DNA of 59,739 nt, filler included, from Dimargaris cristalligena (Eukaryota): assembly GCA_003614675.1 (NCBI GenBank). It is 4 parts of 4 records of this genome, joined end to end, with 100 filler letters (N's around TTAATTAATTAA, not from the genome) between each part and the next. Parts side by side here need not be neighbours in the genome. Positions count along the whole stretch, not along the records: positions 44,902 to 59,739 come from ML002930.1; 3 more parts are not named here. One strand, written 5' to 3'. Position numbers and translations under genes: made by a program. Positions 14,874 through 48,683 of the stretch are shown one piece after another. The first letter of the stretch is position 1. Every line of letters begins with the position of its first letter. The notes under the pieces were generated by a model that had not been told where the DNA came from, searched no databases, and worked only from the letters and a program-made list of their open reading frames with translations.

Positions 14874-14973
14874 NNNNNNNNNNNNNNNNNNNNNNNNNNN
14901 NNNNNNNNNNNNNNNNNTTAATTAATTAANNNNNNNNNNNNNNNNNNNNNNNNNNNNNNNNNNNNNNNNNNNN
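14874..14973. other. Artificial contig spacer N44-TTAATTAATTAA-N44
   Basis: 100-nt spacer carrying a linker with stop codons in all six frames. Confidence 0.98.
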
Positions 14974-29838: not shown

Positions 29839-29938
29839 NNNNNNNNNNNNNNNNNNNNNNNNNNNNNNNNNNNNNNNNNNNNTTAATTAATTAANNNNNN
29901 NNNNNNNNNNNNNNNNNNNNNNNNNNNNNNNNNNNNNN
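29839..29938. other. Artificial contig spacer N44-TTAATTAATTAA-N44
   Basis: Identical to the other two spacers. Confidence 0.98.
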
Positions 29939-38190: not shown

Positions 38191-41100
38191 ATGGTTGCGA
38201 CCCCTCAGCGCCGTTCTACGCGCACCCGGCCCGTAGCCGCCACTCCTTCAACTACAGGTAAGTCAATGGCTCGTAGCCTGCTGTGGGGGTGCCCCTAGCC
38301 ACCCTTTGCCTGAGCCCTTGTTACACAGGTCCAACTCTATATGCCCTATGGGTTATCCCCAGGGCCAAATTAATGCGATACTTGCCCATTAGCTCCATTC
38401 AGCAAGCACTCTATGCAACACTATTATTTATCCGCCCCTATGGGCGCTCTATGTTTTTCCTATATTAATCCGCCCGCTTACGTGTTATATCCCCCTCAAT
38501 TACTGGTAAATAGCCAACGGACATGCTGCTACCGATAAGACTGCCGCTGCTGAACTCTCCTCATCCAGTCTGACCGACCCCGAATTGGAATCAGACAGCG
38601 ATGCCGCGCCGCCGCGGGAAACCCCCCGCTCCACCCGAGGTAGCCGGCGGGGACGGGGACGTCCCCCTACCAAGGGCCGGGGTGGAACTCCTCGAATTAC
38701 ATCTACTCGGACGGACCCCGGGTTGGACAATGGTGACAGCAGCGAAGACGAGCCACCCGCTCGGGGCCGTCCCCGTGGTCGGGGAGCCAAGCGGGCTCGG
38801 CATAGCTCGGCCGCTGTCACCAAAAGCCTCTGGGATATCGATAGTGTCTCCCAAGTCCCGGCCCAACCGAGCACGCGGGGCACAGCCAAGCGCCGCCGCG
38901 GTGGTGCCTCCAACCGGGTCTCGACCAGGGGAGAACCCCCGGCGACTCTCCTCGATGATGCCGAGTCCGTTTTATTCGAAGCCATTATGGACAAGGAGAC
39001 GGCCTTAGCCTCGGTCGTTTCCGACTGGATCGATTCCTACAGCAGCGATGCGTCAGCCGCCCTTCTAGACCTAATCAACCTGATGATTAGGGCCTGCGGT
39101 TGCCAATTGGGCATCGGCGGATCGAACTTACACGAAGAAGATGTGGCCGTGACTGTCCTAACGGACCTCCAAACCCGCCTCAAATCGGATACCCCTGTCG
39201 ACTTTCCTATGCAGTCCAAATCTAAAATCTACAAACGGTTCGCAAAGAACTGTCTCGATTTCTTCGGTCGGCTGCTCCAACAGGGTCAGCATGTCCTGGT
39301 ATACCGGGGTGAGTTTATGGACACGTTCGGTCTTTGGTTGACCCTTATGACGGGATCGTCGTTTCGACCGTTCCGTTACACGGCCACCCTGATTGCCTTA
39401 ACCAGTATTTCCACCCTTTGCGAACTGAGCCAGGGCGTTCAGGCCAATCTGACCACCACCCATCGCCAGCTTAAGACGGAGCAACAGAAGCGTCGGCGCT
39501 CGGGGGCGGGAACCAACCAAGGGCGACTCCAGCAGCTTGAGCAAACGGTGGCTAATTTAAACAGCCAGGCGAGTACACTGGCCCAACTTACCGACAAGTG
39601 GTTCGCGGCCGTCTTTACCCATCGTTACCGTGACATGGATCCCCATATTCGCCAGGAATGTGTCAAGGCACTGGCCAACTGGATCAGCAAACTGCCTAGT
39701 CGGTTCCTGGAGGACAAATACCTACGCTTTATCGGATGGATGTTGTCGGATAAGGTGGCTGCGGTTCGCCAAGAGGCGGTCGGTGCCCTTATCCACCTCT
39801 TCAACCAGCCAGCTCTGCTCCCCGGTTTGTACCATTTCATTAAACGCTTTGAAGGGCGGCTCGTGACCATGGCACTCTACGACGCTGATGTGACCGGAAC
39901 TCGCTTGGGTGCCCTTGAGCTGGTTGCCCTCCTTTGTCAGCAGGGTTTGGTTGAGGGTGGAGTTGCTGACGTATTCACCCATATGGATCGGGTAGAATCG
40001 ACTGCAAATGAAGCAGGAGCCCCTGCCCATCCCGAGGATGTTTCCAACACGGACGGTGCCGACACTATTAACGATATTGCCAAGCGCGTTCTTGCTCATT
40101 ACCGTATCACCCAGACCCAGACGTCGGGTCAAGATTCCACCTACTGCGTCTGCCAAGCCCGCTCCGGCGATCCCCATACGTTTGACTGTACTGACCAGCA
40201 AGTGGTCCGCCGAATTCTGCAGGAGAACCCCCTTCAGGTGTTCTTTATCCCACTGCTTTTTAATAGCCGCCCCCGAGTCCGCCAAGCGGTGGCCCCTCTG
40301 GTGGCCTGGTGGGTGACCAGTTATTGGCTCCCGGCCTTCGCCAATGCTGAATTGGGTAGTGAGGATGATCCCCTGGGACTTGAAGTGGCCCTATCCAGCG
40401 AGTCAGAAAGCGAAATCAGCGCGGACGATGACAGCGCCGATGAGGCGTCGGAGCCCGAAGAAACCGTTGATTCTACCCAGCGTACCGCGGAGGGGACTTT
40501 GACTTGGCGGGCGTTGGGAACGCTCTCCAAGCGCCAGGAACGTAAATTCCGACTCTATAAGACGCTGACGCTGCTCCTAGAGGCGTTTACCCGACCCGAC
40601 GCCCCTAGCCCTGACGAATCACCCTTGGCCGGGGCCATTCATTATGACGATATCCAGGTGGAGGAACTCACTGGCCGGGCTCAAACCGCCTTTAACCTGC
40701 GGGTCTGCGCCGCAACCGCGGCTCTGACTTCAGAAGTGCCCGAATTGGTGGACTGGAAGGCTCTTTGCACCTATGCTACTCTGGATCATTCCTATTCGTC
40801 CCATACGGAGCCCCCACCAACAACCGTGCCGGTCCCCGAGACTGTCGCCCCCAGTTTTGCCGGTGGTCGGTCGGCCCGTCGGCGTAAGCCTACTCGCCCG
40901 ACTCCCGCACCTGCCCCAGTCCAGTCGGCTCCGACCGCCAGTTACCAGCGGTGCTTTTGGCTAACAGAGGCCCAGGAGTCGGTATTTCTGGATTTCTTTG
41001 TCGAATGCCTCAAGGCGGTTTGTGGTATGGAGGGAACTGCGACTAATAGCACCCAAGCCACCATTCTAGCTGCCGGTTCCGCCACCGGGGCCGGTGTGGC

Positions 41101-43644
41101 TGCCTCCGGTGGCGTTCATACGTCTACTAAAGGTAATGCCCGGGAACGCAAGCGTCAAGCCGAATACCTACAGGAACAGGAAAGTAACTTGAATCAACTC
41201 AGTCAGCGCCTAATCGATGTAATCCCGAGCCTACTCGCCCGGTACCGGGCCGACGCCAATCGTATCTCCAAAATCCTATGTTTAGTCACCGACGGTATCC
41301 TGCGCCTCGATGTTTTCCTAGAGGTCCGTAAAGTGACTGGTCTGCGTGAACTAGCCACCGAAACCAAAATGCTATACTTTAACCACGGTTCCCCCTTGGT
41401 GCTCGACCAAACCCTGGCAGCTTTCCGTCTGATTCTCAATAATACGCTGTTGGGCGAGGGCGAGGGCGGTGATACCGACGGGCAGTCACTGCGCCACGCT
41501 AACGAATCAGGTGATGAACCTTCCACAGCCACGGCCCCACTATTGGCCAAGGCCGCGATGGCGGACATGGTTAAATCTATGTTGGATCAGGTGTACGACC
41601 TGTGTCTTCAGATCCACCGGCTGGACGTCAGTCAGCCGCTGGCTGTGACTATTGCCCAGCATCCCGATGGCACTTTGGTGGCCCATCTTACGACGGCCCT
41701 GTATCGACTCCATCAACTCGCCAAATTGGGAAATTTGGAGCTGCTGAATTTCCAACCATCACCCCGGTCACTCGGGGAGGGCCAGACTGATGCTTCGATG
41801 GACGAGGAGTTACCCACCGAAATTACTGACCTGCTTCCGACCGTTGGCTCCTTCCTCGCCACCCTGCTACAATTAATCACTTGGGATGAGCGAATTCCGT
41901 CTACTCTAGACCATTTGAACCTAGCCACTATTTCCGCGTTGGCTTTGCAAATCCTCAATCAGCAATTCGTGTGGCTCGTGGGGCATGTCCAGAGCCAGTA
42001 TCAACCAGCTGTAAATGATGATGGACCATCGGATGCCCTGGGCGATCCCACTACAGTGGCCGGCCTTGCCGTTCTGCAAAAGTACATTTTTCAGCAGAGC
42101 CGAGCCTGGCTGGAGGGTGGCGGCAGCGATACCGCCGGTGAGGGTGTTTTGGGCTACCGCCTGATCCAACATGACATTTTCCAAACCCACTGCCAGTTGC
42201 TGTGGCTCCTCAGCGGGGATATCACCCACCCCCAGGTATGCCCCCCTCTGGTGCCCCTCCGAGTGGGGGTCGATGCGACTACCCGGGAGGAGTTTGGCGG
42301 ATTTATCCAATCTACCTTGGCCCACTGGCTCGACGTGGTTGACAGTCCGGTCGGGGAGGAGGAAAATGAGGAAGGGGAGGAGGGCGGTGAGCGGCCCCGC
42401 CATGAACTGGACCGCCGCTTGCTTCTCCAGGCCCGGCAATCTGTGGCTAGCTACCTGCAAGGATTCACCCTAGATATTTTTACCGCAGACGATGCGGTGC
42501 CCCTGCTGACCCACTACGGCTTGCTGGATCCGGTGTATGACGATATGGTGAAACTTACCTGCGAGCAGCTGGCCCAGGCGGCCCCCCCGGTGGATCGAGT
42601 GACTCTGAACGAGCACTACGAAATTCTCAAACAGCGTCAGCACTTAATCGGGCTGTTTGCCACAGCTGGTACCAGCTCCTTTGACCTATGGTTGAACCGC
42701 TGCCGGCACCGGGCCAATCCAACTGTGTCGCTGGCCCGGATGCTTGCCCAGAGTTTGCGGACAATGAAAGTCAGCCACCCCAATCTGCCACCCGTTATCG
42801 GAGCTTCGGATCCACTGGCGACTCCCCGCCAGAACCCCCATCGGGTCGATCAAGCGGATGATGCCAACCATGGTTCGACCACTCTGAACCCCACCCCACA
42901 GCAGCAGCTTTACCAACTCAATCGGGTGATCACCTCAGCAGTGACTAAGCTCCACCAGGAGGGCATTTCCTACGCCCTCACCAAGTACAAGGGGTACCAA
43001 CGGCTCGAGAATTCGACCGCTGCCGTCCACACTCTCAAATTCTTCAAGGCATTGGTCCCTTTTATTACGGGACTTATCACCCCTTTTCAGGCCGAATCCA
43101 TTAAGCTTTCCGCCGCGGACATTGCGACGACCAATGAAATTGAAATTCCCAACACGGAGGGACAGCTACAAAATACTGATCCGACGACAGCCGGTGATGG
43201 GGAAACGATGGCGGGGCCCGACCGTTCGGTGAAGGACTGGGACGCGTACCACCACTACCTCAAGCAGCTCCAGAAGGTGATTGACAAAAGTGCCATGGCC
43301 CAAATACCGGTGTCCACCCCGGCCGTATCGATGGCGCGGATTCCGACCAAACTTACCGACCAGGGCCCCGAGACCCCGACTAAGCAACCCGCCCGCCGGA
43401 ATCTCAAGCGGCAGCTGGATGAGGATAATGGCGACGATATGGATGAAGATCATCCTCCGAGCGACAACATGTTGGGGGGGGCGACGGTAATTCCGACGAT
43501 ATCCTTAAACCCGTCCCGCTGGTCGATCCTGTTATGGAGGAAGACCAAGAAGCTGAGCCAGATAACTTGATGGACGAAGATGACCCCGTTAGTGAGACAT
43601 CCCAGGACGAAGAGCCCGAGATCCCGGAGTCGATTGAAGAATAG
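38191..43644 (+). CDS. SCC3: Cohesin subunit Scc3/STAG (exon 38191-38257, exon from 38514; apparent frameshift at G8 43474-43481; literal stop 43570, likely true stop 43644)
   Basis: STAG/SCD motifs SSFRPFRYTATL and VFTHRYRDMDPHIRQEC..FLEDKYLRFIGWMLSDK. Phase-1 intron 38258-38513 (GTAAGT..TAG) links ATG 38191 in frame to the 1661-aa ORF. Confidence 0.9.
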
Positions 43645-44801: not shown

Positions 44802-44901
44802 NNNNNNNNNNNNNNNNNNNNNNNNNNNNNNNNNNNNNNNNNNNNTTAATTAATTAANNNNNNNNNNNNNNNNNNNNNNNNNNNNNNNNNNNNNNNNNNN
44901 N
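44802..44901. other. Artificial contig spacer N44-TTAATTAATTAA-N44
   Basis: Identical to the other two spacers. Confidence 0.98.
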
Positions 44902-44922
44902 CCCTACCCACCCTCCATAACC

Positions 44923-46956
44923 ATGTTTCGCGGCCTCAGGGCGTCTCGCCGGCTAATTCGCCCCTCTATAGTCTGCCCCAGGGCTACTCGAGGCCTGATC
45001 TCCTCCTTTAGGCCGGCTTCTACCTCCACCTCCACTTCCGCCCCGCCGAGGCCCACCGCGAGAACTCGGTCCCCGCCCCTCTGGCTGGCTCTAGTGGGGA
45101 TAGTCACCGCTGTTGCCCTTTACTACGAGCGGGATCGTGCACCCCTATGGGGAAGTCCCGTGTTGGCCCACAGCGAAGTCGCCACTAGCCGTGAGCTGTG
45201 TTTACTTGTTCTCCATAACGATATACCCGCCCTCAAGCGCTATCTGGATACCCACGCCAGCTCCGAGCTGGACGCTGCCATCGCTGCCAAATCTACTTTG
45301 ACCGATATCCCCCCACCCGTTGCTGCCGAGTCGCCCTCCCCAGACGCCCAGCGCCGCGCTTATCTGGTAAATTCCCGCCATCCGCTGGGCTGGACTCCGC
45401 TACTGGTGGCCTGTGCTAACGGAAACGCAGCCATGGTTGAATTCCTCCTTCAAAACGGCGCGGACCCCAACCTGCAGGACGAATACCAGGCCTCGGGCCG
45501 GCACTCCTACCACGAATTACGCGAGCTGTACTTGGCCCGTGAACGCGAGTTCTGCTCGCTCATTTACCCCTCCGCCCCGACAGCCGGATTTTCGGTAAGT
45601 TCATGTCCCCCTAGCCCACCATTTCCCTACCCACTCACTGGACACAGAAATCCCATGCCCTTGTTGCGCCAGCCCGACTAATTAAATCGCCCGACAGCGT
45701 TCCCATCCTACCCCTTCTCCCTGCATGAATAGCCCCTCCACTACGCCTGTGTCCAGGGAAATAGTACTATTATCCAGCGCCTTCTCCAGGCCGGGGCCGA
45801 TCCCCGTATCCAAGATATGAACGGCCATTTATGCAAAGACTACCTAGATGAGGACCTACCCGACTACAAGGCTCTACTCCGAAGCATGGCCGAGCATGAG
45901 AACCGCCTGGTGGCCGAACGGAAACGCCGGGCGAAGGAGTTACGCCGAAAGTACCCCCTGGAGGAGCAGCTCAAAGAAGTGATTGTAGGTCAGTTGGCCC
46001 CCATCAATGCCGTCGCCTCTGCTATTCGCCGCCGGGAGAACGGCTGGCACGATGAAGACCGTCCGCTGGTGTTCCTCTTTCTAGGCTCCTCGGGAGTGGG
46101 CAAAACCGAGCTGGCCAAACAGGTGGCCAAGTATATTCACAAGGACGACAAAGATGCCTTCGTTCGGGTCGATTTGTCGGAGTTCCAGTCCAAACACGAA
46201 GTGGCCAAATTCATTGGCTCCCCCCCGGGCTACGTGGGCTACGATGAAGGGGGGCAGCTCACCGAAAAGCTGGCCAAATGCCCCAACGCCGTGGTACTAC
46301 TGGATGAAGTGGAAAAGGCCCACCCCGACGTCTTAACCATCATGCTGCAGGTGTTCGATGAGGGTCACCTAACGGACGGCAAAGGGCAGACCGTCGACTG
46401 CAAAGATGCCATTTTTATCCTTACCTCCAATCTGGCGCAGCACGAAATCGCCGACGAAGCCGAGTCCCTTCGTGCCGACGCCCGGGAACGGGGGACTACT
46501 GCGGGCTTCAACGACGAATCCACCAGCCTATCCCGCAAGTTTATCAACACGACCATCTACCCCATCCTTCGGGGCCACTTTCAGCGGGACGAGTTCCTGG
46601 GCCGTATTAACGAAATTCTCTTCTTCCTTCCCTTCAACCAAACCGAGTTGCACCGAATTGTGATCAAAGAGTTACAGAGGTGGGCCCAGAAGGCGCAGAG
46701 CCGCCACCACATCCAGCTATCCTGGTCGGATAGTGTGGTCGATCTGCTCAGCGAGGGCTACAATATCCGGTATGGCGCGCGCAGCATCAAGCACGAAGTT
46801 GAAAAGCGAGTAGTGAACCAAATCGCCAAGGCCCACGAGCTGGATGAAATCGGGGAAGGGAGCTCAGTGTACGTTTATGAGGAAGACGGAACCATTCGCC
46901 TCAAATTCACCAAAGCCCCCACACCGGCTCCTAGTAAGCGGGGTTTTTTCTCTTGA
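44923..46956 (+). CDS. CLPB: Mitochondrial ankyrin-repeat AAA+ disaggregase, CLPB/Skd3 type (2 exons: 44923-45594, 45733-46956)
   Basis: Arg/Ser-rich presequence, hydrophobic segment LWLALVGIVTAVALYY, ankyrin repeats (HPLGWTPLLVAC..GADPN; GFS|PLHYAC..GADP across phase-0 intron 45595-45732), and a single ClpB-NBD2 domain (GSSGVGKT, PPGYVG, LLDEVEKAH, EFLGRINE, YGARSIK). Confidence 0.93.
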
Positions 46957-47018
46957 TCTAGCGGCTAGATAATTGGAGCTCTTTATTACCGCTCCGTATT
47001 ATATTTCTTAAAAGAATT

Positions 47019-47025
<7 letters not shown>

Positions 47026-47050
<25 letters not shown>
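47026..47050. repeat. (AG)n microsatellite
   Basis: Read directly. Confidence 0.95.
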
Positions 47051-47409
47051 AGGTGTGTGTGTGACGTACAGTCCAGAGCTTTCCTGGATACTACCGCGGA
47101 TTCACAGATTTTAAGTGCAGCAATTGGGGATCTATTAATATTCTTAAGCTTGAAGGCATACGAACTTCCCCGTTTTTCCACCCTGACCCAATTAGAAATG
47201 CATAGTACCAAGCTGGAGGTCAGTCGAATGAGGAGCCTCAATTATAATAAAAAAAATTCGCTGAGTAACCGAAAAAAAAGGTTTATTGACAAGATAAGGA
47301 AGGGGTGACTGTTTAAAAGACCCCGCTGATTAACAGCCGGGGAGAAAGAGGGTAGCGGGTGAAACCCGCGGGCTAGATGGCCCCTTACCCTAAGCAAGGC
47401 CCCGTGGAT

Positions 47410-48683
47410 TTAATCCTCCTGAGTGGGGGAGCGGGAGCGGTCGGCTGGGGGCAACGGGGAGCCCGACCGGGGGCGGTCGTGGTGGGACTGGGAACGCGAG
47501 TAGCTTCGATCGCGGCGGGCCCGTGGTGACGGAGAGCGGGAACTGCGGCGACCCGGGGAGGGGCCACGGGCCTCAGGAGGGGGCGAGCGGGAGTAACGAT
47601 GCCCTGGAGAGGCCGAGCGACGAGGGGGCGACTGAGAATAAGAGCGGGAACGCGGACGGCGACGCTCCATCGATCGGCGTGGGGAGGGGGAACGGGATAG
47701 GCGTCGCGGGCTACGCTCGGAACGGCGGTACGAAGGAGACCGACGGCCGCCCCCACCGCCTCCAGAGCGCCAGGCAGTGTTGGGGGCGTTTTTGGCCCAC
47801 TGGATGCTCAGGGGACTGCCGTCGACGCGGCGTCCATGCATTTCGTTATAGGCGTCATCCGCATCGCGGGGATCCTCGTATTCTATAAAGGCAAAGCTAG
47901 AATAGGAGACGAGGGATAGGGGTAGGTAGGGATCAGGGCAGACCCGAAGAGGGACAGGTAACGAGAATCCCAGGTGGAAAACACAGCCGAATCGAATGTC
48001 GGCAGGCGGGTCAGAAACACGGCGCGGGAGACAAATGGGATGGCAGGCAGATGAGGGGGAACGAAAAGGGGGGGTTAGGCGGAGTATGCGACGGGAACTG
48101 TGTGTGGCCGGCTGGTGCGACGACTAAGGTGCGCAAGCGGGCGGGTGGGTCGGGGTTAATACAGCGGGGTTTAGGAGGACTCGGAGAAGGTGGCTACTAT
48201 TGCCTGTCAAAACAACAGACAAAGGCCGGCAATAAAGAAACGGAAGACAAATAAGGGTTATGTGCGTGAAACAGGAGTGGAAGCAGCCGACAACGCGCGG
48301 AAGGACGCGTTCTGGCTCAACGGCAGTCGGCTCAGCGGAAGCAGTTGTGCAGTGCAATATAGCTTAGGATAGGGTAGGTGGAGGGGCTTACACTCGGTTG
48401 GAGCCAGGGCGGGGGGCCGGGATATCGCAGCGGACCAGGCGACCGTAGCTAGGGACGGAGGAATAGGTTCGACAGAGCAACAAGCAGGGGGTTTAGAAGA
48501 GGAATCGGATAGTTTTCATTGGCATTATTTCTGAGAGTAATTGTGGCCAGCCGAACCGAGTAGGGCGTTATTAGGTGGTGAAAAACACGGCTAGTTCGCT
48601 TACCGTTCGAATTCGTATGCCAGGTCGCGCGCACGGACCGACGGGCTGAAGCCAGCGACGAAGAGAGTACAGCGGCGAGACAT
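47410..48683 (-). CDS. SR splicing factor, single RRM + RS domain, Srp1-like (exons 48683-48604, 48448-48392, 47896-47410)
   Basis: Spliced product MSRRCTLFVAGF..DLAYEFERYGRLVRCDIPAP..VFAFIEYEDPRDADDAYNEMHGRR followed by RS/SP repeats. Both introns are GTAAGC..TAG with compatible phases. Confidence 0.92.

Follow-up and report, generated by a model that had tools for sequence, protein, structure and literature searches.

Does the gene at 44923-46956 (+) of this Dimargaris cristalligena stretch encode a true fungal CLPB/Skd3, the mitochondrial machine for dissolving protein aggregates whose mutations are linked to human disease? The origin of CLPB has been placed on the holozoan stem (PMC4339202), the available part of a second study first sees it in choanoflagellates (PMC7343390), and the available part of a 2026 paper again gives a holozoan origin, with the wordings "the origin of multicellularity" and "multicellular-specific" (PMC13232346). 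In the literature up to 2026, searched with most subscription journals outside, we found no report of fungal or euglenozoan Skd3, and the accessible parts of PMC11975511, PMC12283024, PMC7050145 and PMC7403612 contain nothing on fungal or protist Skd3 orthologues. Orthology databases probably already group the fungal copies, because automatic annotation names some of them "caseinolytic peptidase B protein".

Gene model and domain architecture

The window, which is the whole stretch of 59,739 nucleotides analysed here, is made up of four contigs, with artificial linkers (N44, 12 nt, N44) between them at 14874-14973, 29839-29938 and 44802-44901. Gene order across these linkers is no evidence, and the valid context for the Skd3 gene is only 44902-59739, its own contig C723. 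A Scc3/STAG cohesin subunit was found as one long frame at 38510-43570 (+) in the preceding contig. Because the Skd3 gene begins 21 nt into its own contig, this upstream gene is an unproven neighbour, and the claim of the initial annotation that the gene sits among fungal genes is narrowed to the context 44902-59739. The same contig also encodes a small DUF4286 protein at 51763-52167 (-). The product of 50230-50982 (+) begins like a signal peptide, carries short peptide repeats in tandem and ends in a PF10645 carbohydrate-binding domain.

The Skd3 gene starts with ATG at 44923 and stops at 46954-46956, and the spliced product is 631 aa. Exon 1 (44923-45594, +; aa 1-224) encodes the presequence, hydrophobic segment, spacer, ankyrin repeats 1-2 and the repeat 2-3 linker, and exon 2 (45733-46956, +; aa 225-631 and stop) encodes ankyrin repeats 3-4, a helical linker, the single AAA+ module and a short tail. 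Between them lies a predicted phase-0 GT-AG intron of 138 nt (45595-45732, +), which is in line with the ordinary intron proposed before and is placed by homology only. Two in-frame splice options were found; the second, with its acceptor at 45756, was rejected, as it would delete eight residues of ankyrin repeat 3 that are present in orthologues. The public protein for this locus (P0001, 45886-46956) has 356 aa, no ankyrin Pfam match and no presequence, and therefore the public gene model omits exon 1.

Aa 1-52 (44923-45078, +) have a net charge of +11 and are a predicted mitochondrial presequence. They are followed by a hydrophobic segment of aa 53-67 (45079-45123, +; mean hydropathy 2.29), predicted as an inner-membrane stop-transfer anchor; both were assigned from charge and hydropathy alone. 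The ankyrin domain region (45184-45855, +), delimited by Pfam, alignment to hamster Skd3 and an orthologue model, spans the intron. It is formed by two repeat pairs with a linker between, and the repeat 2-3 linker aligns to hamster Skd3. Pfam detected two ankyrin repeats (aa 156-186 and 225-252), one AAA_2 and one ClpB_D2-small domain, and no NBD1. The AAA+ module (aa 296-604; 45946-46872, +), placed by Pfam and by alignment to hamster Skd3, is thus one NBD2-type module without NBD1 or middle domain, and comparison with the organism's own Hsp104 and Hsp78 gave one matched stretch. The charge and hydropathy profile and Pfam agree with the presequence, hydrophobic segment, ankyrin repeats and single ATPase read from the sequence at the start, and the CLPB-like motifs quoted then are present in the alignment to human CLPB (7xbk, E 1.3e-142).

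The landmarks of the AAA+ module are Walker A K348, pore loop Y391-V392, Walker B E416, sensor-1 N457, Arg finger R515 and sensor-2 R574. By alignment, Walker A and B, both sensors, the Arg finger and the Y-V pore loop are all identical to CLPB. The Skd3 insertion after sensor-1 (human L507-I534) is present and its first helix aligns. The whole segment is 51 aa here versus 58 in hamster, 30 in ClpB and 43-44 in the own Hsp104 and Hsp78, so that insertion length by itself sets Skd3 apart from Hsp78/Hsp104 just modestly. Human positions were assigned through hamster Skd3, which is numbered like human isoform 2. At functionally tested or disease-linked human CLPB positions, 12 of 18 residues are the same, among them every residue of the nucleotide pocket and the primary pore loop, and six differ (R475 to H, R417 to K, E416 to S, T268 to S, A269 to P, R650 to Y). 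The secondary pore loop reads S-K-H versus E-R-H in CLPB, with R408 kept. R417 is no family-defining residue, because only 5 of 35 family rows have it. Fold prediction was made on the Tieghemiomyces orthologue (80% identical), not on the D. cristalligena protein itself, and it gave a pLDDT of 86.6 with the Skd3 hexamer (7TTS) as best match (E 2e-49, 518 columns).

Relationship to CLPB and age of the family

Exon 2 scored 479 bits against human CLPB, and the next scores were 221 (ClpC), 216 (ClpB) and 199 (Hsp104). The AAA+ module shares 62% identity with hamster Skd3 (193/309) versus 37-39% with the organism's own Hsp104 and Hsp78. The genome encodes one copy each of Hsp104-like (C1135), Hsp78-like (C1701) and Skd3 proteins. 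The Dispira orthologue reached 279 bits against the ClpB model, whose cut-off is 1232, and does not have the two-module architecture with middle domain of Hsp78, Hsp104 and ClpB.

In the ATPase-module tree, the Skd3 clade comprised 53 of 64 rows with 100 SH-aLRT on a long stem, apart from the own Hsp104-like and Hsp78-like proteins; P0008, which has a repeated segment, and rows below 240 residues were left out of one of the trees. The tree of ankyrin plus ATPase (481 columns, 35 rows) recovered Zoopagomycota (97/100), Metazoa (100/100), Holozoa (99/96) and a main fungal group (92/91), in which a Nonionella pair and a single environmental row are included; support for the positions of Rozella (79/75) and Parvularia (10/37) was weak. 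The D. cristalligena protein was in the same clade as CLPB in every tree, and a Holomycota clade was compatible with the AU test (p=0.61; AU tests here and below used LG+F+G4 without mixture model and with short searches). Judged from its sequence, the gene is a CLPB/Skd3 orthologue, as was claimed at the beginning, and the trees are read most simply as vertical descent from the opisthokont ancestor. A scan of prokaryote genomes yielded one match out of 112 candidate stretches, an ordinary ClpB at 41%, and the best plasmid matches were ClpK, at 44%.

The homologue search scored 7996 candidates, of which 1457 passed E 1e-80, and the best 120 of these 1457 were examined. Among these matches listed, 43 were early-diverging fungi or kin: eight Zoopagomycota, 32 Mucoromycota, Gonapodya, Rozella and one with an aphelid label. 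The nearest named matches among those listed were Dispira (84%), Dimargaris (81%) and Tieghemiomyces (80%), and no ascomycete or basidiomycete name occurred among the 120 of 1457. Mucor and Rhizopus carry Skd3 orthologues, and so do the nucleariid Parvularia and several protist holozoans. The suggestion that the fusion predates the animal-fungal split is supported.

It had also been proposed that the gene was lost in Dikarya. This is mostly true, but derived copies exist in Agaricomycetes. Divergent members came from Schizopora (three, all on contigs of one and the same length), Phellopilus and Cyclocybe, in a search where 6 of 9 matches had ankyrin domains, and also from Rickenella and Sanghuangporus. 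The Agaricomycete rows P0180, P0359, P0360, P0361, P0362, P0233 and P0181 are fast-evolving Skd3 derivatives. Like the D. cristalligena protein they lie inside the Skd3 clade with ankyrin repeats and a single ATPase, but they differ by a long branch, an ankyrin module which is doubled (by eye, in those read) and no evident basic presequence; they are possibly repurposed outside mitochondria. This group joins Euglenozoa in one tree and an environmental clade in another, and its placement is treated as long-branch noise because no placement was rejected. The methods of PMC12258605 describe a Sordariales orthogroup with ankyrin repeats ahead of AAA and ClpB_D2-small domain. The Atlas holds clusters of single-AAA_2 proteins in Ascomycota and Basidiomycota. 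Two database models, P0339 and P0357, join Skd3 to a prenyltransferase (PF01040) or PF00656 peptidase domain and are probably merged neighbours. P0162, P0274 and P0275 are Skd3-type ATPase modules with unrelated N-termini in place of ankyrin repeats, one of them with a diplonemid-type label.

The range given in the initial annotation, animals with their close unicellular relatives and this fungus, is too narrow, since Euglenozoa also carry Skd3. Among Euglenozoa, Rhabdomonas, Namystynia and Diplonema papillatum have orthologues, the last on a genome contig of 107 kb, and others come from records with the labels EG_transcript and Tbor, which we take to be Euglena gracilis and Trypanoplasma borreli, respectively. 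Together with two rows without names they form one clade (97/97) with euglenid, diplonemid and kinetoplastid-labelled subgroups, and therefore contamination of those data sets is unlikely. The supplement of PMC12699882 lists the Diplonema protein as a mitochondrial "ClpB" (Ank+AAA_2, evidence class "literature") beside a separate two-module ClpB; the main text of that paper mentions neither ClpB nor Skd3. The part of the Euglena mitoproteome supplement that was searched does not contain EG_transcript_9858, and a CLPB term is likewise absent from the accessible part of the supplements of PMC10406608.

How deep is the fusion? It might have arisen on the opisthokont stem and reached Euglenozoa, and a foraminiferan-labelled pair, by ancient transfer, rather than come from a deeper common ancestor; we give this slightly less than an even chance. 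A sister-group position of Euglenozoa was compatible with the AU test for Mucoromycota (p=0.16) and for Metazoa (p=0.12) and was rejected for Zoopagomycota (p=0.029), and no plant, stramenopile, alveolate or amoebozoan appeared among the named matches listed (best 120 of 1457; best 120 of 298). Against it, the euglenozoan clade lies outside the opisthokont sequences in the best tree. Since this clade unites euglenids, diplonemids and the kinetoplastid-labelled group, any transfer would be older than their split. The pair itself (P0019, P0074, P0010 group: a Nonionella protein, foraminiferan, and an NCBI record) is nested among fungi (92/94) with an environmental group, which favours transfer, but moving it outside opisthokonts was also compatible (p=0.13); transfer, contamination or artefact is possible for its position. 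There is in addition a fourth, environmental clade outside the named groups (P0157, P0142, P0149), with presequence and hydrophobic segment, which speaks for greater depth. A common ancestor deeper than the opisthokont stem, taken alone, has about an even chance. Jointly with ancestral release by an inner-membrane peptidase, PARL cleavage arising when animals lost the polar spacer, it is rather unlikely.

In either case the CLPB family is much older than the origin of animals, because many early-branching fungi carry it, as do euglenid-type protists. With the D. cristalligena gene a known family gains a new member, and the distribution of this family contradicts the published origin date. The distribution also removes the idea of CLPB arising as a replacement of Hsp78. 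The link between CLPB and the calcium uniporter is weakened, because Mucoromycotina, reported to have lost MCU (available part of PMC7423614), give 32 among the 120 matches listed. MCU and EMRE had no match in the D. cristalligena genome, in a search without positive control signal, which is no proof of absence.

The R475 position, transfer and independent fusion

In human CLPB, R475 makes an inter-subunit contact, and R475Q nearly abolishes disaggregation. The D. cristalligena protein has H436 at this position by alignment (46366-46368, +), with no differing letter in four DNA runs. Of 246 rows with Skd3 signature, 242 have R at this position, and histidine occurs in just two distinct proteins, those of D. 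cristalligena and Tieghemiomyces. The D. cristalligena Skd3 may be weaker, because an otherwise conserved residue is H here. One could go further and regard the orthologue as weakened or repurposed in this lineage, the change at the subunit interface reducing or altering motor activity. We consider this improbable: the nucleotide-pocket residues are all intact, the terminal branch is short (0.05-0.12), and other Hsp100s, including the own Hsp78, vary at this position. The histidine is common to Tieghemiomyces, whose genome is only 80% identical, which suggests that it is tolerated. It gives a ready-made natural test of a severe patient position.

A contaminating contig, which would have refuted the initial annotation, is very improbable, and so is horizontal transfer, the alternative raised there, if it was from an animal. 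The gene lies at a contig edge with its upstream gene unlinked, but the closest matches among those listed are three Dimargaritales, early-diverging fungi or kin are frequent in the same set, and AU rejected Zoopagomycota with Metazoa (p=8.6e-5). The gene was present in four DNA runs from two studies with zero substitutions, although two of them may be the source of this assembly, and in one run a 4291-nt contig covers the gene and 2145 nt upstream at a depth similar to its neighbours (depth is not copy number).

The chance that fungi independently joined ankyrin repeats to the second ATPase module of an Hsp78, an Hsp104 or a ClpB is negligible: ankyrin-plus-AAA architectures do recur in other families (Atlas rows), but the higher identity to the hamster module, the repeat 2-3 linker common to CLPB, and AU rejection of Zoopagomycota with Hsp78 (p=9e-64) and of the 12-row fungal-side group with Hsp78 (p=4e-5) or Hsp104 (p=3e-31) oppose it. 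Thus the phylogeny that had been suggested with CLPB, Hsp78 and Hsp104 did not group the ATPase with Hsp78, and origin from the own Hsp78 or Hsp104 is ruled out by the AU tests.

Maturation, proposed function and known systems

A candidate maturation motif, V80-L81-A82 (45160-45168, +), was located by motif alignment. Counted from ankyrin repeat 1, it falls at the place of the mammalian PARL site, the hamster motif corresponding to the human PARL site at residue 127, and lies 17 residues past the hydrophobic core, six of them polar. An aliphatic-x-[A/C] motif ending 10-14 residues before ankyrin helix 1 was found in 28 of 35 animals (shuffle mean 6.8), 9 of 12 fungi (shuffle mean 3.0; p=0.002; two short rows dropped) and 7 of 14 other non-animals (shuffle mean 3.2; p=0.015). 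These p-values are flattering, because motif and window were picked after viewing the sequences and the rows are related. At this fixed position the motif was not enriched in euglenozoans (1/10; shuffle mean 2.1). The median distance from hydrophobic core to motif was 1 in animals (motif in 21/33) and 11.5 in non-animals (28/36).

The genome encodes two S26 peptidases, presumably Imp1 and Imp2 by their motifs, and two rhomboids with presequence-like N-termini. One rhomboid (L019) had no PDB match, so that its label "PARL-like" rests on features. Imp2 is a rival protease because the candidate motif is 17 residues outside the hydrophobic core. IMP substrates are described with the site outside the membrane and a hydrophobic residue at -3 (PMC8835746), and the candidate site fits this description. 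Cytochrome c1 is an Imp2 substrate in yeast (PMC8847149); the own cytochrome c1 has a similar layout around its putative site, but with serine at -3. The check for Hsp78 and Pcp1/PARL suggested earlier turned up Hsp78-like and PARL-like proteins, with Hsp104-like and IMP-like proteins in addition. That rhomboid activation is conserved does not follow, as the polar spacer displaces the candidate site and PARL-like and IMP-like proteases are both encoded.

Taken as a whole, a true Skd3/CLPB orthologue working beside Hsp104 and Hsp78 by the following mechanism is the best explanation, with a probability of roughly 0.8. Because it coexists with cytosolic Hsp104 and matrix Hsp78, Skd3 most likely serves a third compartment. 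The basic presequence would lead the protein into the inner-membrane import channel, and the hydrophobic segment would arrest it with the remainder facing the intermembrane space. A protease may then cut after A82; Imp2 has about even odds, PARL/Pcp1 is a serious but less probable candidate, and another protease or an uncut protein is doubtful. Released Skd3 would assemble hexamers or dodecamers, and the ring would thread aggregated intermembrane-space and inner-membrane proteins through its pore, driven by ATP and without Hsp70. In the human model (available parts of PMC7343390 and bioRxiv 2022.02.17.480866), the protein is imported, arrested in the membrane, released by proteolysis and assembled into rings that disaggregate on their own in the intermembrane space, and by analogy with it location, cleavage and activity are proposed for D. 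cristalligena. In humans, HAX1 is an activator of CLPB. Since Mucor, Rhizopus, Diplonema and Euglena carry orthologues, the ancestral clients, the division of labour with Hsp78 and the maturation protease are testable in microbes; two further details open to testing are the displacement of the candidate cleavage site and the natural change at R475.

Compared with human Skd3/CLPB (ANKCLP; PDB 7XBK, 7TTS), the D. cristalligena protein has the same domain order, ankyrin linker, NBD2-type ATPase with insertion, and catalytic and primary pore-loop residues. It differs by a polar spacer before the candidate site, a low-complexity insert after ankyrin repeat 1, H for R475 and K for R417, and coexistence with Hsp78 and Hsp104; compared with hamster Skd3 its insertion segment is seven residues shorter. 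Hsp78, Hsp104 and bacterial ClpB have a homologous second ATPase module (37-39% identity), but unlike Skd3 they have two ATPase modules, a middle domain and no ankyrin repeats, and they are separate genes in this genome.
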